In this document: positions 16,500-32,625 of the stretch, in pieces | Layout of the letters: every line of letters begins with the position of its first letter | How positions within the stretch are numbered: the stretch's first letter is position 1 | DNA from: a virus | Taxonomy: Duplodnaviria; Heunggongvirae; Uroviricota; Caudoviricetes | Virus record (IMG/VR): IMGVR_UViG_2740892214_000019 | Coordinates: 1-34,568 of that record | Length of the DNA stretch: 34,568 nt | Reading direction: 5' to 3' (one strand) | Notes under the pieces: model-generated | Databases searched by the model: none | Told to the model about the DNA's origin: nothing | The model's input: only the letters and a program-made list of their open reading frames with translations | Made by a program: the position numbers and the translations under genes

Positions 16500-18401
16500 G
16501 ATAATTTTCAGCTGAAAGCCATCATCACCGCCGTTGACAGGCTGTCCGGCCCGCTTAAAGGTATGCAGCGTCAGCTTAAGGGGTTTCAGAAAGAAGTCTC
16601 CAGCCTTGCTCTGGGCGCTGCCGGGGCGGGTACTGCAATAATGGGGGCACTGGCACTCCCTGTAAAATCAGCCATCACCCTTGAATCGAAGATGGCTGAT
16701 GTCCGCAAAGTGGTGGACGGTCTGGATACGCCGGATGCGTTTAAGGCCATGACGGAGCAGGTACGCGCTTTGTCTACTGAGCTTCCCATGTCTGCAGACG
16801 GGATCGCGGAAATTGTGGCGGCTGGCGGTCAGGCCGGGATTGCACGTGATGAACTGATGCAGTTTGCCACTGATGCGGTGAAGATGGGCGTGGCCTTTGA
16901 TACCACGGCTGAAGAGTCCGGGCAGATGATGGCCCAGTGGCGTACTGCGTTTAATATGACGCAGGATGAAGTGGCCGGGCTGGCTGACAAAATCAACTAC
17001 CTTGGTAATACCGGCCCGGCGAATGCGAAGAAAATCTCCGATATTGTTACGCGTATTGGTCCTTTAGGTGGTGTTGCAGGTGTGGCTTCCGGCGAAATCG
17101 CGGCAATGGGGGCAACCATTGCCGGGATGGGCGTGGAGTCAGAAATTGCCGCCACAGGGATCAAGAACTTCATGCTTTCCCTGACCGCGGGAAATTCCGC
17201 GACAAAATCGCAGAAACAGGCATTACGTTTTCTGCGGATCAATCCGAAGAAATTAGCTGCTGATATGCAGAAAGATGCCCGGGGAACCATGCTGTCTGTA
17301 CTGGATGCGATGGCTAAAGTGCCCAAAGAAAAACAGGCAGCTGTGCTGAATGCCCTGTTCGGGAAAGAGTCTCTGGGCGCGATAGCACCTCTGCTGACTA
17401 ACCTTGATTTGTTGCGTACCAACTTCAGGCGGGTTGCGGATTCCCAGCAGTATGGCAGTTCGATGCAGAAGGAATATGCTTCGAGGGCAGCGACGACGGA
17501 AAACCAGCTTTTACTTCTGCAAAATCAACTTGATGCCATTTCTTCCACGCTGGGGGAAACGTTTCTTCCTGAGGTTAATGATGGTCTTGAAGCGGTAAAA
17601 CCGCTCCTTGAGGAAGTGAGAACGTTTGTCCGTGAAAACCCGGAGCTCGTTAAGACCATTGCTAAAATCGGTCTGGCCTTACTGACGGTGGGAGCCGCTG
17701 CAGGCTCTTTGTCCAGAATTATGAAAGTTCTCGGCGGTGTGATGAATATGACGCCTGCTAAGGGGCTGATTGCTCTTCTGGTTGGTGGCGCTTACCTCAT
17801 TATTGATAACTGGGAAACCGTAGGTCCTGTCATAAAAAAAGTCTGGCACGTGGTGGATGAAACGGCGCAGGCGATGGGGGGATGGGAAACTGTTCTGAAA
17901 GCGATTGCCCTGTTTATGGCAACCAAATGGGTTGCTGACGTTACCAAATCCATTACCGCAGTGACCAGAGAGATGCGTACGCTGGGGAAGGTATCGGCAG
18001 AAACGGGATTGATGGGGAAAGGCCGCGGCTTTATCGGGAAGGCCGGGGTATATGGTTTTCTGGGAACCCTGATGTATGAGCCGGTTAAAGATACTCTGGA
18101 AAGTGTTGTTCCTGAAGATACGGTTAACTGGCTGGAGAATAAAGGGCTGTTTCTGGCTTCAGACTGGACGCCTTTTTTTGATCGTAAAGAGTACGAGCAG
18201 TATCAGGCCAGCCTGAGTCAGTACAAACCCAATGTTCCGCTGTTGAATCCATCTTCTTCCATGACACAGCACAGCGAGCTGAAAGTCACGTTCGAGAATG
18301 CTCCGCCAGGTATGAAGATAATTGATGTACCGGGCAAAGCCGATCCCCTGATGAAAATCACGCACGATGTGGGGTATTCCCCTTTTCGTTTTCCACGATA
18401 A
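16494..18401 (+). CDS. Tail tape measure protein
   Basis: 635 aa, Ala/Gly-rich with coiled-coil and hydrophobic segments. Confidence 0.85.
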   Translation: MADNFQLKAIITAVDRLSGPLKGMQRQLKGFQKEVSSLALGAAGAGTAIMGALALPVKSAITLESKMADVRKVVDGLDTPDAFKAMTEQVRALSTELPMSADGIAEIVAAGGQAGIARDELMQFATDAVKMGVAFDTTAEESGQMMAQWRTAFNMTQDEVAGLADKINYLGNTGPANAKKISDIVTRIGPLGGVAGVASGEIAAMGATIAGMGVESEIAATGIKNFMLSLTAGNSATKSQKQALRFLRINPKKLAADMQKDARGTMLSVLDAMAKVPKEKQAAVLNALFGKESLGAIAPLLTNLDLLRTNFRRVADSQQYGSSMQKEYASRAATTENQLLLLQNQLDAISSTLGETFLPEVNDGLEAVKPLLEEVRTFVRENPELVKTIAKIGLALLTVGAAAGSLSRIMKVLGGVMNMTPAKGLIALLVGGAYLIIDNWETVGPVIKKVWHVVDETAQAMGGWETVLKAIALFMATKWVADVTKSITAVTREMRTLGKVSAETGLMGKGRGFIGKAGVYGFLGTLMYEPVKDTLESVVPEDTVNWLENKGLFLASDWTPFFDRKEYEQYQASLSQYKPNVPLLNPSSSMTQHSELKVTFENAPPGMKIIDVPGKADPLMKITHDVGYSPFRFPR

Positions 18402-18425
18402 CGCAGTCCTTTTTGAGGTCAGTCT

Positions 18426-19802
18426 ATGGATTTATCCTCATTTCCCACCCGACCTTCATTACTTTCGTCGTCTTCAGGCTGGCGTGACAGACTTCAGGAC
18501 GCGTCATTTCGCGGCGTGCCGTTTAAGGTTGAAGAAGAAAGTGCGGGAACCGGTCGCCGTGTGGAAACACATGAATACCCGAACCGCGACAAACCCTATA
18601 CCGAAGACCTGGGGAAAATCACTTTTCGCCCGTCCATCACGGCTTATGTGGTGGGAGATGACTGCTTTGACCAGCGCGATCGCCTGATTGACGCGCTGAA
18701 TAAACCCGGTCCCGGCACGCTTGTCCATCCGACATACGGTGAGCTGAAAGTCTGTGTTGACGGAGAAGTTCGGGTCAGCACATCGAAGAGTGAAGGGCGT
18801 ATTGTCCGCTTTGACCTGAAGTTTGTCGAAGCAGGAGAACTCTCTTACCCCACATCAGGTGCGGCGACGGCGCAGACGCTGATGTCATCCTGTTCTGCAC
18901 TGGATGACTGCATCAGTGACAGCTTCAGCGGTTTCAGTATCGATGGTGTGGCGGATTTCGTGCAGAACGACGTTATCGGTAATGCCAGCATAATGCTGGG
19001 GTATGTTTCTGATGCGATGAAAGTGGTGGATTCTGCCGTATCGGATGCCGCCAGGCTGTTGCAGGGGGATATCTCGGTACTTCTGCCGCCGCCATCGTCA
19101 GGCAAAAATTTCGTTGAGCAGGTGCAGAAAATGTGGCGTACCGGGAAACGCCTTTATGGTAACGCCAGCGACCTGGTCACCATGATCAAAACGCTTTCTG
19201 GTGTCAGCCTCGGCAGCGATTTGCAACCGCGCGGCGTCTGGAAAACGGACAGTAAAACCACCGCCACAGCGACGCAGCAGCGTAACATGGTTGCCAGCAC
19301 CCTTCGTACGACTGCAATCAGCGAAGCGGCGTATGCCGTTACCCGATTGCCTGCGCCAACAACTTCTGCGGTGATGCAGAATGCCGCAGTGGGGCAGTCA
19401 ACAACACCCGCGCAGAGCTCCGGCTGGCCTGCCGTCACGCATCCGGTGCTGAACAATGCACCGGCGGTGAAAAACACGGTTGACCTGCCAACGTGGGAAG
19501 AACTGACCGACATTCGCGACACACTGAATACGGCAATTGATAAGGAGTTGTCCCGTACAACCAGTGATGCGCTGTTTCTGGCTCTGCGCCGGGTGAAAGC
19601 AGATCTGAATGCGGATATCAACACGCGCCTTGAACAGTCTGCTCGGATCATTCAGCGCACGCCGGATGAGGTTTTACCCGCGCTGGTGCTGGCGGCGACC
19701 TGGTTTGATAACGCGGCGCGTGACGCGGACATTATCCGGCGTAATGCCATTACGCATCCCGGCTTTGTGCCGGTGATCCCTCTGAAGGTGCCAGTGCAAT
19801 GA
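18426..19802 (+). CDS. DNA circulation protein (Mu gpN-like)
   Basis: Synteny after the tape measure; 458 aa. Confidence 0.75.
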   Translation: MDLSSFPTRPSLLSSSSGWRDRLQDASFRGVPFKVEEESAGTGRRVETHEYPNRDKPYTEDLGKITFRPSITAYVVGDDCFDQRDRLIDALNKPGPGTLVHPTYGELKVCVDGEVRVSTSKSEGRIVRFDLKFVEAGELSYPTSGAATAQTLMSSCSALDDCISDSFSGFSIDGVADFVQNDVIGNASIMLGYVSDAMKVVDSAVSDAARLLQGDISVLLPPPSSGKNFVEQVQKMWRTGKRLYGNASDLVTMIKTLSGVSLGSDLQPRGVWKTDSKTTATATQQRNMVASTLRTTAISEAAYAVTRLPAPTTSAVMQNAAVGQSTTPAQSSGWPAVTHPVLNNAPAVKNTVDLPTWEELTDIRDTLNTAIDKELSRTTSDALFLALRRVKADLNADINTRLEQSARIIQRTPDEVLPALVLAATWFDNAARDADIIRRNAITHPGFVPVIPLKVPVQ

Positions 19803-20878
19803 ACGACAATGTCACGCTACGGGTAAATGGCCGGGAGTGGAATGGCTGGACATCGGTGCGCATCGGTGCCGGTATTGAACGGCTGGCGCGGGATTTCAGC
19901 GTGGAGATCACCCGCCAGTGGCCGGGAGATGAGGGTATCACCACGCTTCAGCCGCGCATTAAAAATGGTTCAAAAGTGGAAGTGCTGATTGGTGATGAGC
20001 TGGTGATCACCGGCTGGGTGGAGGCGACCCCCGTTCGTTACGATGCCCGTTCGGTCAGCACCGGTATTGCCGGACGTAGTCTGACTGCTGACCTGATTGA
20101 CTGTGCAGCCGAACCGACACAGTTTAACGGACGATCGCTGGTACAGATTGCGCAGGCGCTTGCTGCGCCTTTCGGCATTGAGGTGGTGAACAGCGATGCG
20201 CCGTCGGGTGTTATTCCGGATGTCCAGCCTGATCACGGTGAAACGGTGATCGAGGTGATCAACAAAATACTCGGTCAGCAGCAGGCGCTGGCTTATGACG
20301 ACCCGCACGGCAGGCTGGTGATTGGTGGTGTTGGCTCAACGCGGGCACATACCGCGCTGGTACTTGGGGAAAACATCCTTTCCTGTGATACGGAGAAGAG
20401 TATCCGGGAGCGGTTTTCAGTTTACCAGGTGGCGGGGCAGCGTGCCGGAAACGACGATGATTTCGGTGAGGCCACCACCACCGCGCTGCGGGCCCGCACA
20501 GAGGATGCATTTATTGCCCGTTACCGTCCGATGTATATCAGGCAGACAGGGCAGGCTACGGGGGCAGGCTGTATTGCCCGTGCGGACTTTGAAGCCAGAC
20601 AACGGGCGGCGCGGACGGATGAAACCACCTATGTGGTGCAGGGCTGGCGACAGGGTAACGGTACGCTGTGGCAGCCCAACCAGCGGGTGATTGTCTTTGA
20701 TCCGGTCTGTGGTTTCGACAATACCGAACTGCTTGTTTCGGAAGTCACGTTCACTCAGGACCAGAACGGCACCCTGACGGAAATCCGTGTCGGCCCGCCT
20801 GATGCTTATCTGCCTGAACCCGAAGCCCCCGGCGCGCGGAAAAAGAAAAAAACCAGAGTACAGGAGGACCCGTTCTGA
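19799..20878 (+). CDS. Baseplate hub protein (Mu gpP-like)
   Basis: Synteny; 359 aa. Confidence 0.75.
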   Translation: MNDNVTLRVNGREWNGWTSVRIGAGIERLARDFSVEITRQWPGDEGITTLQPRIKNGSKVEVLIGDELVITGWVEATPVRYDARSVSTGIAGRSLTADLIDCAAEPTQFNGRSLVQIAQALAAPFGIEVVNSDAPSGVIPDVQPDHGETVIEVINKILGQQQALAYDDPHGRLVIGGVGSTRAHTALVLGENILSCDTEKSIRERFSVYQVAGQRAGNDDDFGEATTTALRARTEDAFIARYRPMYIRQTGQATGAGCIARADFEARQRAARTDETTYVVQGWRQGNGTLWQPNQRVIVFDPVCGFDNTELLVSEVTFTQDQNGTLTEIRVGPPDAYLPEPEAPGARKKKKTRVQEDPF

Positions 20879-21426
20879 TGAGGACGATTGAAGCCATGCA
20901 GCGACAACTCCTCGGCCTGATTGGGCGGGCCGTGGTGAAAAGCATCAGTGCCGCCACGAAATGTCAGACCGTGGATGTGTCCCTGATTGCCGGTGAACCC
21001 AAAGCCGGGGTTGAACATCTTGAACCCTACGGTTTTACCGCAAGGGCAAACAGCGGTGCGGAAGCGGTGGTGTTGTTTCCGGATGGCGACCGTTCTCATG
21101 CGGTGGTTGTTACGGTGTCGGACCGGCGCTACCGCCTGAAAGGGCTGCAGACGGGGGAGGTGGCTGTCTATGACGATCAGGGGCAGTCCGTGACGCTGAC
21201 CCGGGAGGGGATCGTGGTGGACGGTGCAGGTAAAACGATCACGTTTCGCAATTCACCTAAAGCACGTTTTGAAATGGACCTGGAAGTGACAGGACAGGTG
21301 AAAGACCTGTGCGACTCCGGCGGCACCACCATGTCAGCGATGCGGCTTGCCTATAACGGGCATCGTCACAGAGAGAACGGTCAGGGCAGTAACACCGACA
21401 AACCTGATAAAGCGATGGAGGCATGA
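20878..21426 (+). CDS. Baseplate spike protein (Mu gp45 / P2 V-like)
   Basis: 182 aa; contains a DSGGTT-type motif seen in V/gp45 spikes. Confidence 0.7.
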   Translation: MRTIEAMQRQLLGLIGRAVVKSISAATKCQTVDVSLIAGEPKAGVEHLEPYGFTARANSGAEAVVLFPDGDRSHAVVVTVSDRRYRLKGLQTGEVAVYDDQGQSVTLTREGIVVDGAGKTITFRNSPKARFEMDLEVTGQVKDLCDSGGTTMSAMRLAYNGHRHRENGQGSNTDKPDKAMEA

Positions 21427-21851
21427 TGGAACTGTGGCTGACGGTGAACGGTAAACGCACCTGCGCCAGCGCACCGCTGGATCCGCTGACCCGCGCCGTG
21501 GTGATTTCCCTGTTTACCTGGCGGCGGGCGGAGCCTGATGACAACGCCGACGTCCCGATGGGATGGTGGGGGGATACCTGGCCTGCGGTACAGAATGACC
21601 GTTACGGCTCCCGACTGTGGCTGCTTCAGCGCAGCAAATTGACCAATCAGCTGGTGCAGACGGTAAGGGGGTATATCCGCGAATGCCTGCAATGGATGAT
21701 TGATGATGGCGTGGTGTCCCGTATTGATCTGGATATCCGCCGCACCGGGATTAATGAACTGGGTAACAGTATCACTCTCTGGCGTCGTGACGGACCGGTA
21801 ATGATTTCTTTTGATGATCTGTGGAGTGCGATAACGCATGGCGGACAGTGA
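21423..21851 (+). CDS. Baseplate wedge protein (Mu gp46 / P2 W-like)
   Basis: Synteny and size (142 aa). Confidence 0.65.
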   Translation: MMELWLTVNGKRTCASAPLDPLTRAVVISLFTWRRAEPDDNADVPMGWWGDTWPAVQNDRYGSRLWLLQRSKLTNQLVQTVRGYIRECLQWMIDDGVVSRIDLDIRRTGINELGNSITLWRRDGPVMISFDDLWSAITHGGQ

Positions 21852-22896
21852 ATTTCAGCGCCCGACGCTGGCAGAAAATATCAGTATGCTCCGTAACGAT
21901 TTATTCGCCAGGCTGGACGTCAGCGACACGCTCCGGCGCATGGATGAAGACGTGCGGGCAAAGGTGTATGCGGCGGCGCTGCATACGGTTTACGGGTACA
22001 TCGATTATCTGGCAATGAATATGCTGCCTGACCTGTGCGATGAGTCCTGGCTGGCGCGACATGCTGCGATGAAACGGTGTCCGCGCAAGGGGGCCACGGC
22101 TGCCAGCGGGTATATGCGCTGGGAAGGTGTCAGCGATGGCCTGAAGGTGACTGCCGGGAGCGTGATTCAGCGCGATGACCTGGTTCAGTACACGGCAACT
22201 GCCGATGCAACCAGCTCCGGTGGTGTCCTGCGCGTGCCGATCGCCTGCTCAAGTGCAGGCGCGGTCGGTAACGCTGACGACGGTACGTCATTAATCCTGG
22301 TCACGCCGGTGAATGGTCTGCCGTCTTCCGGTGTTGCAGATACCCTGACTGGCGGATTCGATACTGAAGATCTGGAAACGTGGCGCGCCCGCGTCATTGA
22401 GCGGTATTACTGGACGCCGCAGGGCGGGGCTGACGGGGACTATGTCGTCTGGGCTAAAGAAGTGCCCGGCATTACCCGCGCATGGACATACCGTCACTGG
22501 ATGGGAACGGGAACTGTCGGTGTGATGATTGCCAGCAGTGACCTGATTAATCCCATTCCGGAAGAATCAACGGAAACGGCGGCAAGACAACATATCGGGC
22601 CACTGGCCCCGGTGGCAGGCTCTGATTTGTATGTGTTCAGGCCGGTGGCGCATACGGTGGATTTTCATATCCGTGTGACGCCGGATACACCAGAAATACG
22701 GGCTGCCATCACCGCCGAGTTGCGTTCGTTCCTGCTGCGTGATGGTTATCCGCAGGGAGAACTGAAGGTGTCGCGTATCAGTGAAGCGATTTCCGGTGCG
22801 AACGGGGAATACAGCCATCAGTTGCTTGCACCGGCAGACAATATCTCCATTGCAAAAAATGAACTGGCGGTACTGGGGACGATTTCATGGACGTGA
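21838..22896 (+). CDS. Baseplate J-like protein (Mu gp47)
   Basis: 352 aa; synteny. Confidence 0.8.
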
Positions 22897-23471
22897 CAAA
22901 CGATGATTACATCCGTCTGTTGTCGGCACTGTTGCCCCCCGGTCCGGCGTGGTCAGCCAGCGATCCGGCGATTGCCGGTGCGGCACCGTCATTAACCCGC
23001 GCTCATCAGCGTGCGGATGCCCTGATGCGGGAGCTGGATCCGCGCACCACCACTGAACTGATAAACCGCTGGGAGCGTCTGTGCGGTCTGCCGGATGAAT
23101 GTATTCCGGCGGGAACGCAGACCCTTCGCCAGCGCCAGCAACGGCTGGATGCGAAGGTTAACCTGGCGGGCGGCATCAACGAGGATTTTTATCTTGCACA
23201 GCTTGCTGCCCTGGGCAGACCAGATGCCACCATCACGCGATACGACAAAAGCACGTTCACCTGCTCATCGGCCTGTACTGACGCGGTGAATGCGCCGGAA
23301 TGGCGGTATTACTGGCAGGTCAACATGCCAACCACCACCAACACCACCTGGATGACATGTGGCGATCCCTGTGATTCCGCACTGCGTATCTGGGGCGACA
23401 CCGTTGTCGAGTGTGTGCTTAACAAACTCTGCCCGTCGCATACCTACGTAATTTTTAAATATCCGGAGTAA
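22887..23471 (+). CDS. Baseplate/tail protein (Mu gp48 / P2 I / YmfQ-like)
   Basis: 194 aa directly upstream of the fibre gene. Confidence 0.7.
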
Positions 23472-23474
23472 TCC

Positions 23475-24098
23475 ATGCATCGTATAGACACGAAAACCGC
23501 GCAGAAGGATAAGTTCGGCGCGGGTAAGAACGGTTTTACCCGTGGTAACCCCCAGACCGGCACGCCTGCCACCGATCTGGATGATGACTACTTTGACATG
23601 TTGCAGGAGGAGCTTTGCAGCGTGGTGGAGGCATCCGGTGCCAGTCTGGAGAAGGCGCGGCACGACCAGCTGCTTACCGCGCTTCGTGCGCTGCTGTTAA
23701 GCCGCAAGAATCCGTTTGGCGATATCAAATCGGATGGCACGGTGAAAACGGCCCTCTCAAATCTTGGTTTGGGCGAAGCGGCGAAACGAGATGTCGGAAC
23801 AGGTGCTAACCAACTACCAGACATGTCTGCATGGACCAGTGGTAGTGGGTGGGTAAAGTTTCCAGACGGGACAATTATTCAGAGCGGGAGGACAACCATG
23901 GCGGCAGGACAGATTGCGGTAAGGACGCTGCCAATCCCTTTTACTACCTCAGGCTATATTGTTCTTGCTTCGTTCTGGGGTTCAGATCCCTCACCTTCAA
24001 AACCAGTTGGCGTGTCGTCAGCTGATCTTTCAACAATCCGAATTGCCAACTGGAGCACTCCAGCAGCAGAAATTGCCTGGATAGCCATAGGGAAATAA
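23475..24098 (+). CDS. Tail fibre protein, constant N-terminus plus currently expressed variable C-terminus
   Basis: [10 protein letters not shown]... N-terminus typical of short S/Stf-type fibres; the inversion crossover site lies inside the gene near codon 95. Confidence 0.75.
23753..23778. repeat. Left inversion crossover site (gix/hix/pix-like)
   Basis: CTCTCAAATCTTGGTTTGGGCGAAG is in inverted orientation to the site at 25589-25614 and shares the TTGGTTTGGG-GAA half-site. Confidence 0.5.
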
Positions 24099-24100
24099 AT

Positions 24101-24547
24101 ATGACCAAATACAGATACTCAGCAGTTACAAACGAATTTTTCCCTTACTCCCTTAAGGATAGCTACCTGGCAAGCGGGCAATGGCCTGATGAGGGAGTCG
24201 ATTTTGATGAGGACGGATTTATCTCCTGGAAAGCAGAAAATGCACCGGATGGCAAGATACGTGCAGCAGGGAATGATGGCTTCCCTGAATGGGTAGATGA
24301 ACCTGAACCGACTCACGAAGAACTTGTTAGAACTGCTGACGCCGAAAAAAGGTCCCGTATTGAGCAGGCTAACTATTATATCAATAGTAAGCAGTGGCCC
24401 GGTAAAGCCGCTATTGGTCGTCTGAAAGGTGACGAACTGGCGCAATATAATTTGTGGCTGGATTATCTGGACGCACTGGAACTGGTTGATACTTCCAGTG
24501 CGCCGGATATTGAATGGCCTACGCCTCCGGCAGTTCAGGCCAGATGA
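24101..24547 (+). CDS. Tail fibre assembly chaperone (Tfa)
   Basis: Tfa-typical N-terminus and C-terminal IEWPTPP motif. Confidence 0.85.
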   Translation: MTKYRYSAVTNEFFPYSLKDSYLASGQWPDEGVDFDEDGFISWKAENAPDGKIRAAGNDGFPEWVDEPEPTHEELVRTADAEKRSRIEQANYYINSKQWPGKAAIGRLKGDELAQYNLWLDYLDALELVDTSSAPDIEWPTPPAVQAR

Positions 24548-25121
24548 CATCCGGCGCGGTGCTGGTATCTGTTGCCGCCACCGCGTCAATGTAATCCAGC
24601 ACAGCGTTAAGCCGGGTTGTTTCTGCCTGCGTCAGTTTCCGCCCGGCCTGTAATTTCAGCTGAATCAGACTAATGGAAGCCATTGCTGCATCAATCAGTG
24701 ACTGGCGCTGTGCTTCTGCCGCTTCTACTGCGGCACCGTGTTGTGCCTCAGTATCTGTCACCCATTTCTCACCATCCCATTTATCGTATGGCGTTAATGG
24801 GGCGATAGTGGTTGTATTTTCAGGGTAATCACCCGGAGCTGTGATTTCTTTTGATTCTCCTGTTTCAGTGCTATATACCGTTTCACCACGGTGGTCTGGC
24901 ACATATACCCATGAGTTAAAATCTGCAGAACGGCAGATTGCATAACCAGCTTTATATGGGTCAGGAGCATCTAAACAGGAGCATGCCGGGATTCCTACGC
25001 CAACGGCAAGATATTCTGTTGATGATGAAATGTATTCCCGTGTCGTGTTGTCATAGCTATAGACGGTAATATCACCCGCTACTGTGGCAATAAATTCACT
25101 GTTTAATTTTGCCTGTGTCAT
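24519..25121 (-). CDS. Alternative tail fibre assembly chaperone (Tfa')
   Basis: C-terminal VIWPELP motif; convergent with the plus-strand Tfa. Confidence 0.85.
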   Translation of the reverse strand: MTQAKLNSEFIATVAGDITVYSYDNTTREYISSSTEYLAVGVGIPACSCLDAPDPYKAGYAICRSADFNSWVYVPDHRGETVYSTETGESKEITAPGDYPENTTTIAPLTPYDKWDGEKWVTDTEAQHGAAVEAAEAQRQSLIDAAMASISLIQLKLQAGRKLTQAETTRLNAVLDYIDAVAATDTSTAPDVIWPELPEA

Positions 25122-25642
25122 TATGCGGCCCTCACGATGTAGTTAAATGCGACGTTTCGCGGGCGGTTTTCTGGTGCTGTAGGCACAACTCTGGAAGCAT
25201 CAAAACTACCAGACAAAGGTCTTGTATCAGCGCCACCTCCAGCACTAGTGATAGGTTGTATAGTTTCGTTACTCCCCGCAAAGGCACCTGACAATTGACT
25301 TAAAGCCCCAGCTGTTGAGCCATTATTCAATACCGAAATGATACCGGTGATATTTCTAATTGCATCGCCCTGAGAGGAAAGCAAACTCCTCGCAGAATCA
25401 ATCCCGCGTCCGTCATCCCAACCGCGTAGAAACTCACCACGTAAATCAGGCAATTTATTTGTCGGATAAACTTTTGCCAGTTCCGGGTATTCTTCAGCAG
25501 AAAAAGCCGCACCATTGCATTTCAGCCAGCCTGTTGGCGGAGTGGCTGAAGGCCACGGAACAGGCACACCAACGGGTAATGCCGAACCTTCTCCCAAACC
25601 AACGTTTATGAAAATGCAGAGATAACGGGCAACTGGCATCAT
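25121..25642 (-). CDS. Alternative tail fibre C-terminal segment, expressed only after inversion
   Basis: Contains the fibre-tip motif PVGVPVPWP...GWLKCNGAAFS..YPELAKVYP; the ORF's apparent N-terminus crosses the right crossover site, so it has no independent start. Confidence 0.7.
   Translation of the reverse strand: MMPVARYLCIFINVGLGEGSALPVGVPVPWPSATPPTGWLKCNGAAFSAEEYPELAKVYPTNKLPDLRGEFLRGWDDGRGIDSARSLLSSQGDAIRNITGIISVLNNGSTAGALSQLSGAFAGSNETIQPITSAGGGADTRPLSGSFDASRVVPTAPENRPRNVAFNYIVRAA
25589..25614. repeat. Right inversion crossover site (gix/hix/pix-like)
   Basis: TTCTCCCAAACCAACGTTTATGAAAA, a 26-bp imperfect dyad resembling Hin/Gin sites, about 50 bp upstream of the invertase start. 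Confidence 0.6.
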
Positions 25643-25663
25643 CTCCGGTTTTTATTCAGGGGG

Positions 25664-26263
25664 ATGCTCATGCTTATTGGCTATGTACGCGTGTCAACAA
25701 ATGACCAGAACACGGAATTGCAGCGTAACGCGCTGGAGTGTGCAGGATGTGAGCTGATTTTTGAGGATAAAATCAGCGGCACGAAGTCCGACCGACCGGG
25801 ACTGAAAAAACTGCTCAGAACATTATCAGCAGGTGACACTCTGGTGGTCTGGAAGCTGGACAGGCTGGGGCGTAGTATGCGGCATCTGGTCATTCTGGTT
25901 GAGGAGCTGCGCGAACGCGGCGTTAATTTTCGCAGCCTGACGGATGCTATTGATACCAGCACGCCGATGGGGCGCTTTTTCTTTCATGTGATGGGTGCCC
26001 TGGCTGAAATGGAGCGAGAACTCATTGTCGAGCGGACACGCGCCGGACTGGAAGCGGCCAGAGCCAAAGGTCGTATTGGTGGCAGACGACCGAAACTCAC
26101 CACGAGTGAGTGGGAGCAGGTCGGACGGTTGCTGGCTGCGGGGGAATCTCGTCAACGTGTGGCGCTGATTTTTGATATTGGCCTGTCCACGCTCTATAAA
26201 AAATTCCCCTCATCAGCGACAAAGAATAAATTGTGTCATCCCTTAGCCAACCGGGACAAATAG
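25664..26263 (+). CDS. Serine DNA invertase (Gin/Pin/Hin/Cin family)
   Basis: N-terminal LIGYVRVST(N)DQ catalytic motif and C-terminal helix-turn-helix; small resolvase/invertase size. Start may be the second ATG at 25670. Confidence 0.9.
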   Translation: MLMLIGYVRVSTNDQNTELQRNALECAGCELIFEDKISGTKSDRPGLKKLLRTLSAGDTLVVWKLDRLGRSMRHLVILVEELRERGVNFRSLTDAIDTSTPMGRFFFHVMGALAEMERELIVERTRAGLEAARAKGRIGGRRPKLTTSEWEQVGRLLAAGESRQRVALIFDIGLSTLYKKFPSSATKNKLCHPLANRDK

Positions 26264-26322
26264 CCTGACATCTCCGGCACAACTGAAAATACCACTCACC
26301 CATTAACCACGGAGTTAAACGG

Positions 26323-27513
26323 ATGAGTGACTATCATCACGGCGTGCAGGTGCTGGAGATTAACGACGGCACCCGCGTCATTTCCACCGTATCCACTGCC
26401 ATTGTCGGCATGGTCTGCACGGCCAGCGATGCGGATGCGGAAACCTTCCCCCTCAATAAACCTGTGCTGATTACCAATGTGCAGAACGCAATTGCAAAGG
26501 CCGGTAAAAAAGGCACGCTGGCGGCATCGTTGCAGGCCATCGCTGACCAGTCAAAACCGGTCACCGTTGTCGTGCGCGTGGAAGACGGCACCGGTGATGA
26601 CGAGGAAACGAAACTCGCGCAGACCGTTTCCAATATCATCGGCACCACCGACGAAAACGGTCAGTACACCGGACTGAAAGCCCTGCTGGCGGCGGAGTCG
26701 GTAACTGGTGTTAAACCGCGTATTCTCGGCGTGCCGGGACTGGACACCAAAGAGGTGGCGGTTGCACTGGCATCAGTCTGTCAGAAGCTGCGCGCTTTCG
26801 GGTATATCAGCGCATGGGGCTGTAAAACCATTTCCGAGGTGAAAGCCTACCGCCAGAATTTCAGCCAGCGTGAGCTGATGGTCATCTGGCCGGATTTCCT
26901 CGCATGGGATACGGTCGCCAGTACCACCGCCACCGCGTATGCCACCGCCCGTGCGCTGGGTCTGCGCGCTAAAATCGACCAGGAGCAGGGCTGGCATAAA
27001 ACGCTGTCCAACGTCGGGGTGAACGGTGTTACCGGAATCAGCGCGTCCGTATTCTGGGATTTGCAGGAGTCCGGCACCGATGCTGACCTGCTTAACGAGT
27101 CAGGCGTCACAACGCTGATTCGCCGTGACGGTTTCCGCTTCTGGGGTAACCGTACCTGCTCTGATGACCCGCTGTTCCTCTTTGAAAACTACACCCGCAC
27201 CGCGCAGGTGCTGGCCGACACGATGGCTGAGGCGCACATGTGGGCGGTGGACAAGCCCATCACCGCAACGCTGATTCGCGACATCGTTGACGGCATCAAT
27301 GCCAAATTCCGTGAGTTGAAAACAAACGGCTATATCGTGGATGCGACCTGCTGGTTCAGCGAAGAATCCAACGATGCGGAAACCCTCAAGGCCGGAAAAC
27401 TGTATATCGACTACGACTATACACCGGTACCTCCTCTTGAAAACCTGACCCTGCGCCAGCGTATTACCGATAAATACCTGGCGAATCTGGTCACCTCGGT
27501 TAACAGCAATTAA
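26323..27513 (+). CDS. FI: P2-type tail sheath protein
   Basis: 396 aa; near-identical along its length to P2 gpFI as I recall it. Confidence 0.93.
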   Translation: MSDYHHGVQVLEINDGTRVISTVSTAIVGMVCTASDADAETFPLNKPVLITNVQNAIAKAGKKGTLAASLQAIADQSKPVTVVVRVEDGTGDDEETKLAQTVSNIIGTTDENGQYTGLKALLAAESVTGVKPRILGVPGLDTKEVAVALASVCQKLRAFGYISAWGCKTISEVKAYRQNFSQRELMVIWPDFLAWDTVASTTATAYATARALGLRAKIDQEQGWHKTLSNVGVNGVTGISASVFWDLQESGTDADLLNESGVTTLIRRDGFRFWGNRTCSDDPLFLFENYTRTAQVLADTMAEAHMWAVDKPITATLIRDIVDGINAKFRELKTNGYIVDATCWFSEESNDAETLKAGKLYIDYDYTPVPPLENLTLRQRITDKYLANLVTSVNSN

Positions 27514-27525
27514 GGAGCCTGACCG

Positions 27526-28044
27526 ATGGCAATGCCGCGCAAACTCAAGTTAATGAACGTCTTTCTGAACGGCTACAGCTATCAGGGCGTTGCAAAGTCC
27601 GTCACGCTGCCAAAACTGACCCGTAAGCTCGAAAACTATCGCGGTGCGGGGATGAACGGCAGCGCACCGGTAGACCTCGGCCTTGATGACGATGCGCTGT
27701 CAATGGAGTGGTCGCTCGGTGGCTTCCCGGATTCGGTTATCTGGGAGCTTTACGCCGCAACCGGTGTGGATGCCGTACCGATTCGTTTTGCAGGCTCTTA
27801 CCAGCGCGACGATACCGGCGAAACGGTGGCCGTCGAGGTGGTCATGCGTGGACGTCAGAAAGAAATCGACACCGGCGAGGGCAAACAGGGAGAAGACACC
27901 GAGTCGAAAATCTCCGTGGTCTGCACCTATTTCCGGCTGACGATGGACGGTAAGGAGCTGGTCGAAATCGACACCATCAACATGATTGAGAAGGTGAACG
28001 GCGTCGACCGGCTGGAGCAACACCGCCGCAATATCGGCCTGTGA
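27526..28044 (+). CDS. FII: P2-type tail tube protein
   Basis: 172 aa; matches P2 gpFII. Confidence 0.93.
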   Translation: MAMPRKLKLMNVFLNGYSYQGVAKSVTLPKLTRKLENYRGAGMNGSAPVDLGLDDDALSMEWSLGGFPDSVIWELYAATGVDAVPIRFAGSYQRDDTGETVAVEVVMRGRQKEIDTGEGKQGEDTESKISVVCTYFRLTMDGKELVEIDTINMIEKVNGVDRLEQHRRNIGL

Positions 28045-28100
28045 TTTTCATCCGGTCAGTCTGGCTGACCGGTTAACCCCGATTCAGAAGTGAGAAAACC

Positions 28101-28376
28101 ATGAACAAAGAAAACGTCATTACCCTGGACAATCCGGTCAAACGTGGTGAGCAGGTTATCGAACAGATCACGCTGATGAAACCCAATGCCGGGACGCTGC
28201 GCGGTGTCAGTCTGGCTGCAGTCGCGAACTCCGAAGTCGATGCACTGATTAAAGTGCTGCCGCGCATGACGGCACCGATGCTGACCGAGCAGGAAGTCGC
28301 CGCGCTGGAACTGCCTGACCTTGTGGCGCTGGCCGGTAAGGTGGTCGGTTTTTTGTCGCCGAACTCGGTGCAGTGA
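28101..28376 (+). CDS. E: P2-type tail assembly chaperone
   Basis: 91 aa; slippery T TTT TTG at 28349-28355 near the 3' end. Confidence 0.9.
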   Translation: MNKENVITLDNPVKRGEQVIEQITLMKPNAGTLRGVSLAAVANSEVDALIKVLPRMTAPMLTEQEVAALELPDLVALAGKVVGFLSPNSVQ

Positions 28377-28528
28377 CGTTTCCGAAAAATCTCTCGGTCG
28401 ATGACCTGATGGCGGATGTGGCAGTGATATTTCACTGGCCGCCATCAGAACTGTATCCCATGAGCCTGACCGAACTCATCACATGGCGCGAAAAGGCGCT
28501 CCGGCGAAGTGGAAACACGAATGAGTAA
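28101..28528 (+). CDS. E': P2-type E+E' programmed -1 frameshift product
   Basis: After the slip the -1 frame is open to TAA at 28526-28528, overlapping the T start. Confidence 0.75.
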
Positions 28529-30968
28529 CAATGTAAAATTACAGGTATTGCTCAGGGCTGTTGACCAGGCATCCCGCCCGTTTAAATCCATCCGCACAGC
28601 GAGCAAGTCGCTGTCGGGGGATATCCGGGAAACACAAAAATCACTGCGCGAGCTGAACGGTCACGCATCCCGTATTGAGGGATTCCGCAAGACCAGCGCA
28701 CAGCTCGCCGTGACTGGTCATGCACTTGAAAAGGCTCGGCAGGAAGCAGAAGCCCTTGCCACACAGTTTAAAAACACCGAACGTCCGACCCGTGCTCAGG
28801 CGAAAGTGCTGGAATCCGCAAAGCGTGCGGCGGAGGACTTACAGGCGAAATATAACCGCCTGACGGATTCCGTTAAACGCCAGCAGCGGGAACTGGCCGC
28901 TGTGGGAATTAATACCCGCAATCTTGCACATGATGAGCAGGGACTGAAAAACCGTATCAGTGAAACCACCGCACAGCTTAACCGTCAGCGCGACGCGCTG
29001 GCGCGTGTCAGTGCGCAACAGGCAAAACTTAACGCAGTCAAACAGCGTTATCAGGCCGGAAAGGAGCTGGCCGGAAATATGGCCTCAGTGGGCGCTGCCG
29101 GTGTGGGGATTGCAGCGGCGGGAACGATGGCCGGTGTTAAGCTACTGATGCCCGGTTATGAGTTTGCGCAGAAAAACTCAGAATTGCAGGCCGTGCTAGG
29201 TGTGGCAAAAGACTCCGCCGAAATGGCCGCACTCCGCAAGCAGGCGCGCCAGCTCGGCGACAATACCGCCGCCTCGGCAGATGATGCAGCCGGTGCGCAG
29301 ATTATTATTGCGAAAGCCGGTGGGGATGTTGATGCCATTCAGGCGGCAACGCCGGTCACGCTGAACATGGCGCTGGCGAACCGCCGCACGATGGAAGAAA
29401 ACGCCGCCCTGTTGATGGGGATGAAATCCGCCTTTCAGCTTTCAAACGATAAGGTCGCTCATATCGGGGATGTTCTCTCCATGACGATGAACAAAACCGC
29501 CGCCGATTTTGACGGTATGAGCGATGCGCTGACCTATGCTGCACCTGTGGCAAAAAATGCCGGTGTCAGCATTGAAGAAACCGCCGCAATGGTCGGGGCG
29601 CTGCATGATGCAAAAATTACCGGTTCAATGGCGGGGACGGGAAGCCGTGCCGTGTTAAGTCGCCTGCAGGCACCGACGGGAAAAGCATGGGATGCACTCA
29701 AAGAGCTTGGCGTGAAAACCTCAGACAGTAAGGGGAATACCCGACCAGTATTTACCATTCTGAAAGAAATGCAGGCCAGTTTTGAGAAAAACCGGCTCGG
29801 TACTGCCCAGCAGGCTGAATACATGAAAACCATTTTCGGGGAGGAGGCCAGCTCAGCCGCCGCCGTGCTGATGACTGCCGCCTCAACCGGAAAGCTGGAC
29901 AAACTGACCGCTGCGTTTAAAGCCTCAGACGGGAAGACCGCCGAGCTGGTAAATATCATGCAGGACAACCTCGGCGGTGACTTTAAGGAGTTTCAGTCCG
30001 CTTATGAGGCGGTGGGGACAGACCTGTTTGACCAGCAGGAAGGCGCGCTGCGTAAGCTCACGCAGACGGCCACAAAGTATGTGTTAAAACTCGACGGCTG
30101 GATACAGAAAAACAAATCACTGGCGTCAACCATTGGCCTCATTGCCGGTGGCGCGCTGGCGCTTACTGGCATCATCGGTGCAATTGGTCTTGTTGCCTGG
30201 CCGGTTATCACCGGCATCAATGCCATCATCGCGGCAGCAGGCGCAATGGGGGCAATCTTCACGACGGTTGGTAGTGCCGTTATGACGGCTATCGGGGCGA
30301 TTAGCTGGCCGGTTGTGGCCGTGGTGGCTGCAATTGTCGCCGGGGCGTTGCTTATCCGTAAATACTGGGAGCCTGTCAGCGCATTCTTTGGCGGTGTGGT
30401 GGAAGGGCTGAAAGCGGCATTTGCGCCGGTGGGGGAACTGTTCACGCCACTTAAGCCGCTGTTTGACTGGCTGGGTGAAAAGTTACAGGCCGCGTGGCAG
30501 TGGTTTAAAAACCTGATTGCCCCCGTCAAAGCCACCCAGGACACCCTGAACCGTTGCCGTGACACGGGTGTCATGTTCGGGCAGGCACTGGCTGACGCGT
30601 TGATGCTGCCGCTTAATGCGTTCAACAAACTGCGCAGCGGTATTGACTGGGTACTGGAAAAACTCGGCGTTATCAACAAAGAGTCAGGCACGCTTGACCA
30701 GACCGCCGCCAGAACTCATGCCGCCACGTATGGCACCGGTGGTTATATTCCGGCGGCCAGCTCTTATGCAGGTTATCAGGCTTATCAGCCGGTCACGGCA
30801 CCGGCTGGCCGCTCTTATGTGGACCAGAGTAAAAACGAATATCACATCAACCTGACGGGCGGTACTGCGCCGGGGACACAGCTCGACCGCCAGTTACAGG
30901 ATGCACTCGAAAAATACGAGCGGGATAAACGTGCGCGCGCCCGTGCCAGCATGATGCATGACGGTTAA
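28521..30968 (+). CDS. T: P2-type tail tape measure protein
   Basis: Matches P2 gpT starting MSNNVKLQ; the track's 28509 start is a GTG, the ATG is at 28521. Confidence 0.9.
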   Translation: MSNNVKLQVLLRAVDQASRPFKSIRTASKSLSGDIRETQKSLRELNGHASRIEGFRKTSAQLAVTGHALEKARQEAEALATQFKNTERPTRAQAKVLESAKRAAEDLQAKYNRLTDSVKRQQRELAAVGINTRNLAHDEQGLKNRISETTAQLNRQRDALARVSAQQAKLNAVKQRYQAGKELAGNMASVGAAGVGIAAAGTMAGVKLLMPGYEFAQKNSELQAVLGVAKDSAEMAALRKQARQLGDNTAASADDAAGAQIIIAKAGGDVDAIQAATPVTLNMALANRRTMEENAALLMGMKSAFQLSNDKVAHIGDVLSMTMNKTAADFDGMSDALTYAAPVAKNAGVSIEETAAMVGALHDAKITGSMAGTGSRAVLSRLQAPTGKAWDALKELGVKTSDSKGNTRPVFTILKEMQASFEKNRLGTAQQAEYMKTIFGEEASSAAAVLMTAASTGKLDKLTAAFKASDGKTAELVNIMQDNLGGDFKEFQSAYEAVGTDLFDQQEGALRKLTQTATKYVLKLDGWIQKNKSLASTIGLIAGGALALTGIIGAIGLVAWPVITGINAIIAAAGAMGAIFTTVGSAVMTAIGAISWPVVAVVAAIVAGALLIRKYWEPVSAFFGGVVEGLKAAFAPVGELFTPLKPLFDWLGEKLQAAWQWFKNLIAPVKATQDTLNRCRDTGVMFGQALADALMLPLNAFNKLRSGIDWVLEKLGVINKESGTLDQTAARTHAATYGTGGYIPAASSYAGYQAYQPVTAPAGRSYVDQSKNEYHINLTGGTAPGTQLDRQLQDALEKYERDKRARARASMMHDG

Positions 30969-30982
30969 GGAGGTGACGAAAA

Positions 30983-31462
30983 ATGATGCTCGCGTTAGGT
31001 ATGTTTGTTTTTATGCGCCAGACGCTGCCACACCAGACCATGCAGCGTGAATCAGATTATCGCTGGCCGTCAAATTCCCGTATCGGTAAACGGGATGCCT
31101 ACCAGTTTCTCGGTGTGGGTGAGGAAAACATTACGCTTGCCGGTGTGCTTTATCCTGAACTGACCGGCGGAAAGCTGACGATGACCACGCTCAGACTGAT
31201 GGCAGAGGAAGGCCGGGCGTGGCCGTTGCTGGATGGCACCGGAATGATTTACGGCATGTATGTCATCAGCAGGGTGAGTGAAACAGGGAGTATTTTCTTT
31301 GCAGACGGCACACCCCGGAAAATTGATTTTACGCTGTCGCTCACCCGCGTTGATGAATCACTGGCCGCGCTTTATGGCGATATCGGTAAACAGGCGGAGT
31401 CGCTCATCGGTAAGGCCGGCAGTCTGGCGACCAGATTCACAGGTATGATGGGGGCGGGATAA
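30983..31462 (+). CDS. U: P2-type tail protein
   Basis: Matches P2 gpU in size and sequence. Confidence 0.9.
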   Translation: MMLALGMFVFMRQTLPHQTMQRESDYRWPSNSRIGKRDAYQFLGVGEENITLAGVLYPELTGGKLTMTTLRLMAEEGRAWPLLDGTGMIYGMYVISRVSETGSIFFADGTPRKIDFTLSLTRVDESLAALYGDIGKQAESLIGKAGSLATRFTGMMGAG

Positions 31463-32625
31463 TGCTGGATGCGCTGACATTTGATGCAGGCAGTACGCTG
31501 ACGCCGGATTACATGCTGATGCTCGACAGCAGGGATATTACCGGCAATATCAGCGACCGTCTGATGAGCATGACTCTGACGGATAACCGGGGCTTTGAAG
31601 CTGACCAGCTTGATATTGAACTGAACGATGCCGACGGGCAGGTCGGGCTGCCGGTTCGTGGCGCTGTCCTGACGGTGTATATCGGCTGGAAAGGTTTTGC
31701 CCTGGTATGCAAAGGGAAATTTACCGTTGATGAGGTTGAACACCGGGGCGCACCGGATGTGGTCACCATCCGCGCCCGGAGTGCAGATTTTCGTGGGACG
31801 CTCAATTCCCGCCGTGAAGGCTCCTGGCATGACACCACGCTCGGTGCGATTGTTGAGGCGATAGCCTCCCGTAACAGGCTGGAAGCCAGTGTCGCTCCGT
31901 CACTGGCCGGAATTAAAATCCCGCACATCGACCAGTCGCAGGAGTCTGATGCAAAATTCCTGACCCGCCTTGCTGAACGCAACGGCGGTGAGGTGTCGGT
32001 AAAAATGGGAAAACTGTTGTTTCTCAAAGCGGGGCAGGGGGTGACGGCCAGCGGTAAAAAAATCCCGCAGATTACCATCACCCGCAGCGACGGCGACCGT
32101 CATCATTTTGCGATTGCTGACCGTGGAGCCTATACCGGCGTAACGGCAAAGTGGCTTCACACCAAAGACCCGAAGCCGCAAAAGCAGAAGGTAAAACTGA
32201 AACGCAAAAAGAAAGAAAAACACCTGCGCGCACTGGAGCACCCAAAAGCGAAACCGGTCAGGCAGAAGAAAGCGCCAAAAGTACCGGAAGCGCGCGAAGG
32301 TGAATATATGGCCGGTGAGGCTGACAATGTTTTTGCCCTGACCACGGTATATGCCACGAAAGCGCAGGCCATGCGCGCCGCTCAGGCGAAGTGGGATAAA
32401 CTGCAACGGGGCGTTGCGGAGTTCTCCATCAGCCTGGCTACCGGTCGGGCAGATATTTACACGGAAACACCGGTTAAAGTGTCAGGCTTTAAGCGCGTCA
32501 TAGACGAGCAGGACTGGACAATCACTAAGGTGACACATTTTCTGAATAATAGCGGCTTCACGACGTCCCTGGAGCTTGAGGTCAGGCTTTCTGATGTGGA
32601 GTACGAAACAGAAGATGATGAGTGA
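31462..32625 (+). CDS. D: P2-type late control / tail protein
   Basis: 387 aa; matches P2 gpD. Confidence 0.9.
   Translation: MLDALTFDAGSTLTPDYMLMLDSRDITGNISDRLMSMTLTDNRGFEADQLDIELNDADGQVGLPVRGAVLTVYIGWKGFALVCKGKFTVDEVEHRGAPDVVTIRARSADFRGTLNSRREGSWHDTTLGAIVEAIASRNRLEASVAPSLAGIKIPHIDQSQESDAKFLTRLAERNGGEVSVKMGKLLFLKAGQGVTASGKKIPQITITRSDGDRHHFAIADRGAYTGVTAKWLHTKDPKPQKQKVKLKRKKKEKHLRALEHPKAKPVRQKKAPKVPEAREGEYMAGEADNVFALTTVYATKAQAMRAAQAKWDKLQRGVAEFSISLATGRADIYTETPVKVSGFKRVIDEQDWTITKVTHFLNNSGFTTSLELEVRLSDVEYETEDDE

Follow-up and report, generated by a model that had tools for sequence, protein, structure and literature searches.

A Pin-type tail-fibre inversion switch whose two ends stem from two E. 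coli prophages, most likely an assembly chimera

A tail-fibre gene that is followed by two opposed sets of fibre C-terminus and chaperone, lies between inverted repeats and adjoins a serine invertase gene raises the question of whether the locus is a host-range switch belonging to one phage. The window, that is, the whole stretch of 34,568 nucleotides analysed here, is the first 34.6 kb of draft contig BBUW01000035.1 (GCA_001592595.1), in which the sheath gene lies at the same coordinates. The initial annotation had described a 26-bp dyad at 25589-25614, just upstream of the invertase gene, and an inverted partner at about 23753-23778, near codon 95 of the fibre gene. The comparison of the two as inverted repeats, which that annotation had called for, gave the following sites:

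23752-23777, minus strand: left 26-bp crossover site, core TT at 23764-23765; reverse complement TTCGCCCAAACC AA GATTTGAGAGGG
25589-25614, plus strand: right 26-bp crossover site, TTCTCCCAAACC AA CGTTTATGAAAA, core at 25601-25602

The right site reads TTCTCCCAAACCAACGTTTATGAAAA, exactly as described, and the invertase gene begins 55 bp past it. The left site, with the reverse complement TTCGCCCAAACCAAGATTTGAGAGGG, is indeed an inverted partner inside the fibre gene; its best alignment lies one base to the left of the position first given, and its core falls within codon 97 of the fibre gene at 23475-24098, not codon 95. The two sites agree at 18/26 positions over their full length and at 13/14 over the inner half-site and core, and a repeat finder returned arms at 23759-23778 and 25588-25607 (20 nt, 85% complementary). 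The central dinucleotide, AA on the right and TT on the left, is the same core in inverted orientation, so that the pair has the form of Din-family sites: two inverted 26-bp imperfect palindromes with an identical core dinucleotide. In the whole 34.6-kb window, the exact pattern TTCNCCCAAACCAA has two copies, which are the two sites, whereas 0.03 copies are expected by chance and none of 100 shuffles contained two matches. A scan of the window found no third site at up to two mismatches, which rules out a multi-site system such as Min or a shufflon. A looser scan of the window returned only one unrelated match with three mismatches, at 17515. Scanning for an invertase promoter overlapping the right site yielded nothing convincing.

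As had been proposed, two convergent sets of fibre C-terminus and Tfa chaperone, identified from open reading frames (ORFs) and Pfam matches, lie between the sites:

23475-23763, plus strand: constant fibre N-terminal part, SfIV-like (e14 StfP-type), codons 1-96 of ORF 23475-24098, outside the segment
23766-24098, plus strand: variable fibre C-terminus 1 (Gp53-like_C; Pfam PF21882, E 2.6e-09)
24101-24547, plus strand: tail-fibre assembly chaperone 1, 148 aa (Pfam Caudo_TAP, E 4e-29)
24519-25121, minus strand: tail-fibre assembly chaperone 2, 200 aa, TfaE-like (Pfam Caudo_TAP, E 9e-33)
25121-25600, minus strand: variable fibre C-terminus 2 (Collar domain, StfE-like; Pfam Collar, E 6.5e-15)

Read from the ORFs, C-terminus 1 is the version expressed in the assembled orientation and C-terminus 2 is the silent one. 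Inversion in silico exchanges the fibre C-terminus together with its chaperone, in agreement with the initial annotation, and keeps the frame open while the fibre changes from 207 aa to 256 aa; this 49-aa difference equals that between the 460- and 509-aa fibres of the P2-like prophage described below. The layout is that of a fibre switch, with a constant N-terminus outside, two opposed sets of C-terminus and chaperone inside and both fusions in frame.

The gene beyond the right site encodes the presumed recombinase and may carry its enhancer:

25670-26263, plus strand: Din-family serine DNA invertase, 197 aa (Pfam Resolvase and HTH_7; alternative start at 25664)
25688-25759, plus strand: candidate recombinational enhancer stretch, by homology to the annotated P1 cin enhancer (gene positions +19 to +90)

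The protein matches PF00239 (Resolvase, E 2.8e-52) and PF02796 (HTH_7, E 4.8e-13) and has the build of a Din-family enzyme, a small serine recombinase with an N-terminal catalytic domain that carries the nucleophilic serine and a C-terminal helix-turn-helix. Its N-terminus, MLIGYVRVSTNDQ, can be aligned residue by residue with those of PinE, Cin and Gin. With identities of 86.7% to PinE, 79.8% to Cin, 79.6% to Gin and 97.5% to the pro483 enzyme, the protein is a close relative of characterised invertases. The kinship to the Mu G, P1 C and e14 P segments that had been suggested is borne out by these identities (80-87%) and by the right site, which matches the e14 site adjoining pinE in K-12 at 26/26 positions and is also identical in P2-like prophages. 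The enhancer-homologous stretch agrees with cin at 57/72 positions, compared with 70% over the first 540 nt, a comparison confounded by coding constraint. G-N13-C 15-mers at +22 and +71, 49 bp apart, are present in both the window invertase and gin, whereas pinE lacks the second and cin the first. We regard an enhancer in this conserved coding region of the invertase gene as putative, assigned by homology to cin.

On sequence grounds, the module is a Din-family (Gin/Cin/Pin/Hin) tail-fibre inversion system, directly homologous to the e14 P segment. The type of switch is already known, the e14 P segment and invertible P2-like fibre segments being well described. The e14 P segment inverts experimentally at TTGGTTTGGGAGAAGG / CCTTCTCCCAAACCAA through PinE, PinQ or PinR, and Pin enzymes work in trans on other prophages (PMC12529663). 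Systems of this family have 26-bp sites, a Fis enhancer and an invertasome that limits the reaction to intramolecular inversion (PMC3798978). By analogy with the family, each 26-bp site would be occupied by invertase dimers, and an enhancer within the 5′ part of the invertase gene, with Fis bound to it, would bring the two sites together on supercoiled DNA. The DNA would be cut with a 2-nt stagger at the AA/TT core, the subunits would rotate and the ends would be religated. The 1.84-kb segment would then flip, and the constant N-terminus would read either into the Gp53-like end with the 148-aa chaperone or into the Collar end with the 200-aa chaperone. The flipped left junction is predicted to be ...CCCTCTCAAATC TT GGTTTGGGAGAA..., the reverse complement of TTCTCCCAAACCAAGATTTGAGAGGG.

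Relatives of the window (L numbers denote the loci compared) were examined for such flipping. L018 and L022 contain the same P2-like prophage as L019, yet their fibres have 460 or 509 aa, and the exchange of half-sites falls exactly at AA; both orientations thus occur among near-identical P2-like prophages at fieF. In the inverted relatives, the homology breaks at 25601-25607 of the window. Moreover, G-type sites in IMG/VR contigs were found unflipped in two cases and flipped in one, and both orientation states are present among e14-type loci. These comparisons show that the switch of the P2-like parent evidently flips in nature, with exchange at the core, and the earlier suggestion of lysogens of mixed orientation holds for that parent. 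The enzyme also appears to accept poorer sites, one of which lies downstream of its gene:

26434-26459, plus strand: quasi-site in the P2-type sheath gene, GATGCGGAAACC TT CCCCCTCAATAA

In L017, a stretch matching window 25601-26447 is inverted through this quasi-site, with both joints at the AA core, an aberrant inversion. A flipped form of the left site found in the window was seen in none of the fetched loci, IMG/VR or metagenomes; parental copies are few (four in IMG/VR, none in metagenomes), so this result is uninformative.

The initial annotation had implied a switch of a single phage. This part fails, because the left site is SfIV-like, whereas the right site and the invertase are P2-like. 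The window divides as follows:

1-24064, plus strand: SfIV/SfV-like prophage part with lysis genes, terminase, head and Mu-type tail, 97% identical to SfIV and vB_EcoM-720R4
14237-15733: 498-aa sheath gene of the Mu-type tail, in the SfIV-like part
24065-24519, no strand: likeliest interval for the join between SfIV-like and P2-like DNA, 455 bp identical in both parents, delimited by SNPs
24520-33400, plus strand: right end of a P2-like prophage with second cassette, invertase, FI, FII, E, T, U, D, ogr and a 133-aa cargo ORF, 99.92% identical to L022, with matches to P2 and pro483
33666-34568: host gene fieF, from Pfam matches

Window 13475-24519 is 99.955% identical to L027, an SfIV-like prophage at dusA, and window 23763-34568 is 99.917% identical to L022, a P2-like prophage at fieF; L018 aligns with the latter interval as a single block. 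The sites, invertase and fibre therefore do not come from one phage genome: their closest matches are different parents, and the window carries two complete contractile-tail modules. The P2-like late region from Q to ogr is present only from 23763 rightwards, and the P2-like parent's own left site, which sits in its H gene, is absent from the window. At the empty integration site of this parent, cpxP adjoins fieF; the fieF protein in the window is the common E. coli allele. In one assembly, GCA_949764985.1, both parents are found together, about 208 kb apart and in the same direction.

The closest SfIV-like relatives (at least 99.9% identical) have a 146-aa tfa followed by dinI, int and dusA, without an invertase or a second cassette. 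The left-site 26-mer recurs in L006, L008 and L027-L035, loci without an invertase, and in L007, where the invertase is only a 104-aa ORF; L009 stops before the invertase region. Compared with the e14, SKA5 and L023 site, the outer half of the left site has 4/12 changes. To judge from these relatives, the left site is an orphan of the SfIV-like lineage, in which a deletion took the second cassette and the invertase. By homology likewise, the P2-like fieF prophage accounts for the right site and for all that follows it, the invertase included. The intact switch is that of this P2-like prophage at cpxP-fieF, which supplied the invertase together with the right site; the position of the join decides whether it supplied the second cassette in part or as a whole.

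Where the two parents meet was narrowed down from the alleles. The constant fibre part up to the site is 100% identical to e14-type and L006/L027 sequences, and homology to P2-like prophages begins only at 23763. There a 757-bp repeat common to both prophages starts, which runs to 24519 and includes C-terminus 1. At 23890, 23991 and 24064, every P2-like copy sampled carries a base other than that of the window, and past these positions all of them match it; the SfIV-like L027 and L032 match it throughout the repeat and end at 24519. Past this position, the 3′ end of chaperone 1 is of the P2-prophage type; the 146-aa version of the SfIV-like relatives diverges after it. The join accordingly lies most likely in the 455 bp named above, although two kinds of parent would shift it. 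CS18F-type prophages carry the window alleles at all three SNPs, and a P2-like parent with such alleles would allow a join as far left as the left core. The exact chaperone 2 protein is found in P2-like fieF prophages and in one SfIV-like prophage that retains the full switch; an SfIV-like parent of that kind (as L023) would allow a join anywhere up to 25602.

A join within the shared repeat, not at the core, points to a homology- or assembler-driven event, not an invertase-driven one. We consider the locus to be a Pin-type switch of the e14-P kind whose two ends stem from two E. coli prophages, most likely through an assembly chimera. This origin is judged likelier than a real rearrangement because the contig that begins with the window is a draft and because the join has the layout of a duplication joint. 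In other assemblies, contigs break off in or at the repeat, L009 at window 24134 and Logan contig L156 at about 23792. The hybrid was found in none of 5,426 complete E. coli genomes (no place covering at least 80% of 20000-30000) and in none of 119 IMG/VR loci; a search of species-representative genomes returned only two unrelated loci and no hybrid. The physical linkage was judged from assembled sequence only, not from reads. With paired reads, an assembler may in principle get through a 455-bp repeat without error, and if it did so here, the join would be real. A large inversion between the prophages was rejected on geometry: the two run in the same direction, and after such an inversion the second cassette would lead into P2 H, I and J instead of the invertase and FI.

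The chief alternative to a chimera is a physically real join, formed by homologous recombination in the shared Hv-tfa repeat of two resident prophages, which we hold to be unlikely but worth weighing. Such a join could be the new junction of a tandem duplication spanning about 208 kb, or it could come from a single crossover that put a circular SfIV-like genome into the P2-like prophage, and it would leave a working composite switch in which the P2 prophage invertase flips an SfIV-like fibre end. The co-residence of the parents in related genomes, in direct orientation and with a near-identical repeat, fits such an event, and so does a contig that crosses the repeat with SfIV alleles and runs on into P2-specific DNA. 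Both sites and the invertase are intact, the frame is kept, and the inversion at the quasi-site in L017 indicates an enzyme tolerant of poor sites. However, a fixed duplication or insertion is expected to be rare and unstable, the hybrid is absent from the complete genomes and IMG/VR loci searched, and other assemblies break at the repeat. The recombinant left-site form was likewise found nowhere, although only the few parental copies counted above bear on it.

It is very unlikely that the invertase itself fused the two prophages, site-specifically, between their crossover sites. That P2-like homology starts exactly at the left core (23763) would be expected from such a fusion, and both the action of Pin enzymes in trans (PMC12529663) and the aberrant quasi-site use in L017 lend it some plausibility. 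The 23763 boundary is, however, simply explained by the differing constant parts of the two phages, and the SfIV-type alleles kept at 23890, 23991 and 24064 place the change to P2-type DNA to the right of 24064. The reaction would also have to join sites in direct orientation, either within one chromosome or between sister chromosomes, an arrangement disfavoured by the invertasome (PMC3798978).

A native host-range switch of one prophage has become highly improbable. All parts are present and correctly arranged, and SfIV-like phages with a full switch do exist (SKA5, L023), but these use another invertase (54% identical) followed by dinI and int. In the window, by contrast, the genes that come after the invertase are those of a P2-type sheath, tube and tape measure, U, D and ogr, and finally host fieF, with a complete Mu-type tail upstream; the two halves match different parents at 99.9%, and this two-parent structure already refutes the idea. 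The probability that the inverted repeat is a product of chance, or of a conserved G-L-G-E peptide coded on both strands, is negligible: the peptide encoded by the inner half-sites is indeed the same in the two fibre ends, but two copies stand against 0.03 expected, the right site is identical to one used experimentally, and the exchange of half-sites exactly at the core in relatives (L018 versus L019) refutes it.

As a switch, this copy is 99.9% identical to those of widespread E. coli prophages and adds nothing new. Its significance is that of a warning. A fibre-cassette segment of 0.76-1.8 kb is nearly base-identical in unrelated prophages of one genome, with the consequence that draft contigs can stray between prophages there. 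A provirus, a host range or a 'switch' called on such a contig can then be that of a phage that does not exist. Were the join true, it would exemplify recombination between prophages through the fibre cassette, with an orphan crossover site reused in cis with a P2 invertase. Orphan sites in prophages that have no invertase would then be targets for invertases encoded by other prophages in the same cell, and large rearrangements could start from them.

Among known systems, the e14 P segment with PinE (stfP-tfaP / tfaE-stfE, K-12) shares the gene order, the inner half-sites and the AA core, and its constant fibre part is about 100% identical over the first part and ~89% near the site. The e14 segment measures 1797 bp compared with 1839 bp in the window, its left site has the outer half CTCTCGAAAACC where the window left site has 4/12 changes, and its Gp53-like cassette is a different allele. 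The invertase gene is followed by mcrA in e14 and by P2-type tail genes in the window, and the module as assembled here is a composite of two prophages. P2-like (Peduovirus) genomes with an invertase between G and FI include pro483, 'P2' of O157:H43 T22 and the fieF prophages L018-L022. The cassettes, right site, invertase and fieF-adjoining insertion site of L022 are as in the window; to the left of the segment, however, P2-like prophages have V, W, J, I and the constant part of a 460-aa H, whereas the window has the SfIV-like tail module. SKA5 and L023, SfV/SfIV-like with a switch of their own, share this tail module, the fibre constant part, the inner half-sites and the cassettes; their invertase belongs to another subgroup (187 aa), adjoins the outer half-site CCTTTCAAATAT and is followed by dinI, int and dusA. 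The Mu G/Gin and P1 C/Cin systems share the logic of a constant part outside and two C-termini with chaperones inside, as well as 26-bp sites with a 2-bp core, an invertase gene adjoining one site and, within that gene, an enhancer, of which the window has a putative counterpart. Their fibre and chaperone sequences differ from those of the window, as do their sites (gix TTATCCAAAACC..., cix TTCTCTTAAACC...), and the window fibre, at 207 or 256 aa, is much shorter than the Mu and P1 fibres.

The right-hand crossover site proposed in the initial annotation was confirmed at 25589-25614 (+), where it reads TTCTCCCAAACCAACGTTTATGAAAA. The inverted partner, placed there at about 23753-23778, is also present, but its best placement lies one base leftward at 23752-23777 (−), the reverse complement reading TTCGCCCAAACCAAGATTTGAGAGGG. 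When the two sites were compared computationally as inverted repeats, arms at 23759-23778 and 25588-25607 (20 nt) paired with 85% complementarity. Parsed as 12 + 2 + 12 bases, the sites have near-identical inner halves, which face into the segment (TTCGCCCAAACC versus TTCTCCCAAACC), and the same central dinucleotide (AA at 25601-25602, TT at 23764-23765), whereas their outer halves are unlike each other. The exact pattern TTCNCCCAAACCAA occurs twice in the window, at these two sites only (0.03 expected from shuffles), and no third site was found in the window even with two mismatches allowed. The sites bound the following arrangement.

Features of the segment and of related positions in the window.
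14237-15733: sheath of the Mu-type tail, 498 aa, within the SfIV-like part
23475-24098 (+): fibre gene, 207 aa, with the crossover core in codon 97
Inside the segment (+): Gp53-like_C fibre end (Pfam domain)
24101-24547 (+): Caudo_TAP chaperone, 148 aa
24519-25121 (−): Caudo_TAP chaperone, 200 aa
25121-25600 (−): Collar-domain fibre end
25670-26263: Resolvase + HTH_7 gene (invertase), starting 55 bp past the right site
26434-26459: quasi-site inside the P2 sheath gene FI, counterpart of a joint in the P2-like prophage L017

Flipping 23765-25601 in silico preserves the frame across N-L-G-L-G-E; the fibre, 207 aa as assembled, becomes 256 aa long and ends in the Collar domain. The initial annotation was correct that inversion swaps the fibre end together with its chaperone, and it had also correctly recognised both crossover sites and the type of system, a tail-fibre inversion.

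Judged by its sequence matches, the window is more than one phage, with an SfIV-like and a P2-like part. The stretch from 9600 to ~25100 matches SfIV, SfII, SfV and vB_EcoM-720R4 at ~97%, and 25603-33665 matches P2-like phages at 95-97% (FI, FII, E, T, U, D and ogr), with the host gene fieF after it; the window thus holds two complete contractile-tail modules. Over 13475-24519 the window shares 99.955% identity with L027, an SfIV-like prophage inserted at dusA, and over 23763-34568 it shares 99.917% with L022, a P2-like prophage located at fieF. Only 23763-24519 is common to both parents, running from the left core to the deletion point of the SfIV-like lineage. In that dusA lineage, which by comparison with SKA5 has a 1.7-kb deletion, dinI, int and dusA come immediately after a 146-aa chaperone, and the second cassette and the invertase are missing, which makes the window's left site an orphan. 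In its outer half, CCCTCTCAAATC, 4 of 12 positions are changed relative to CTCTCGAAAACC, the form in the switch-keeping SfIV-like version (e14, SKA5 and L023). The CCCTCTCAAATC variant was found in loci without an invertase, L007 having just a 104-aa ORF there; L009 ends before the invertase region.

Direct evidence for flipping of the P2-like module comes from the sites of its relatives. The exact 200-aa chaperone is encoded by many P2-like prophages adjoining fieF. In L018 and L022 the segment is oriented as in the window and the fibre protein H has 460 aa with a Gp53-like_C end; in L019, otherwise the same prophage, the segment is reversed and the H protein has 509 aa with a Collar end. The sites are TTCTCCCAAACC|AA|CGTTTATGAAAA and TTCGCCCAAACC|AA|GGTATGCGAGAA in L018, and TTCTCCCAAACC|AA|GGTATGCGAGAA and TTCGCCCAAACC|AA|CGTTTATGAAAA in L019, so that inner and outer halves are swapped precisely at the core. 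Among IMG/VR contigs with sites of the P2-like type, two are unflipped and one is flipped, and e14-type loci are present in both orientations. No flipped copy of the orphan left site was found, the parental copies being too few for this to carry meaning. The working switch is that of the P2-like prophage, whose true left partner, in the H gene, is absent from the window. In another P2-like prophage (L017 8675-9521, GCA_949764985.1), the counterpart of window 25601-26447 is inverted, a stretch that takes in the invertase gene and codons 1-41 of FI. The right site and the quasi-site inside FI (GATGCGGAAACC TT CCCCCTCAATAA) were recombined at the AA core, and the sheath is truncated to 349 aa; barring an assembly error, an aberrant invertase event seems to have disabled this prophage.

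All sampled P2-like copies differ from the window at 23890, 23991 and 24064 and are identical afterwards, and the SfIV-like L027 and L032 are identical to it up to 24519, which places the switch from SfIV-like to P2-like sequence within 24065-24519, 455 bases identical in both parents. These SNPs speak against a join at the crossover core. A join further left would be allowed if the P2-like parent had other alleles, as CS18F has, and one anywhere up to 25602 if the SfIV-like parent had kept the full switch, like L023.

We regard the join as probably an assembly chimera. The window corresponds to bases 1-34,568 of draft contig BBUW01000035.1 (42,985 bp; GCA_001592595.1), in which the sheath protein with its private allele has the same coordinates. 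A 24,145-bp IMG/VR contig appears to stop at window 24134, within the shared repeat, and a Logan contig with the same private sheath allele stops ~30 bp into that repeat. No place covering 80% of 20000-30000 was found in 5,426 complete E. coli genomes, and in none of 119 IMG/VR loci does the SfIV-like constant part occur together with an invertase or sheath of the P2 type. Contigs ending in the repeat, together with the missing hybrids, point to an assembly problem, and in draft assemblies leaving a two-copy repeat by the wrong exit is commoner than a fixed 208-kb duplication or a nested phage.

A true rearrangement, with the join physically real, is rather unlikely. In GCA_949764985.1 both parents are present, ~208 kb apart and in the same direction, and the order in the window (SfIV-like late genes, P2 right end, fieF) is the one that a tandem duplication, an excised circle or a single-crossover insertion of the SfIV-like phage into the P2 prophage would give. 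However, a fixed duplication or nested phage should be rare, the hybrid was not found in the 5,426 genomes or the 119 loci, and other assemblies break at the shared repeat. Were the join real, the assembled pair of sites could still work, because its left member has the same inner half and core as the left site that works in the P2 prophage itself and because the enzyme tolerates far poorer sites, such as the L017 quasi-site. The joint of a deletion or inversion is excluded by the gene order. The two-prophage composite is the sole unusual element, and it is probably not physical; the inversion system as such is already known, and the sequence is near-identical to widespread E. coli prophages.

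The cassette at 23763-24519 (fibre end and chaperone) was found at 99-100% identity on at least three prophage backbones: SfIV-like at dusA, P2-like at fieF and, in CS18F (L010), P2/186-like with a different gene order; L007 and L018-L023 also carry it. Homology starts at the crossover core in every case, and a near-identical cassette on several backbones makes a hot spot for prophage exchange and for assembly errors. Three further ORFs were observed outside the segment. In the SfIV-like part, with lysis genes on one side and terminase genes on the other, a 303-aa trypsin-like peptidase ORF (5083-5994, +) gave a match to PDC-S45, a candidate defence family in PADLOC (E 5.8e-42). The P2-like prophage carries at its right end a 133-aa ORF (32977-33378, −), flanked by ogr and fieF, for which neither Pfam nor PADLOC gave a match; the related prophages L011 and L025 lack 32960-33432, which is thus variable cargo. 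A 313-aa ORF (2439-3380, −), on the opposite strand at the early/late boundary of the SfIV-like part, likewise had no Pfam or PADLOC match and may be cargo.

The SfIV-like phages with a full switch, SKA5 (L004 6369-6932) and L023 (8885-9448), encode an invertase of a second kind, which has 187 aa and shares only 54% identity with that of the window. There the outer half-site adjoining the invertase differs (CCTTTCAAATAT), whereas the inner half-sites and core are unchanged, as are the cassettes, indicating that two invertase subgroups serve the same segment.

The region is directly homologous to the e14 P segment (stfP, tfaP, tfaE, stfE, pinE). Inversion of that 1797-bp segment at TTGGTTTGGGAGAAGG / CCTTCTCCCAAACCAA was shown by experiment and can be driven by any of PinE, PinQ and PinR; one third of the E. 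coli genomes studied there have the inverted state (PMC12529663). Such systems generally use 26-bp sites and a 65-bp enhancer with a Fis site at either end, and the invertasome limits the reaction to intramolecular inversion (PMC3798978). One stretch of the window is identical at 57 of 72 aligned positions to the enhancer that is annotated within the P1 cin gene; the match is compatible with a putative enhancer, with coding constraint as a confounder. The site adjoining pinE in the e14 of K-12 matches the right site of the window at 26 of 26 bases, and the invertase is 86.7% identical to PinE, as against 79.8% to Cin and 79.6% to Gin.
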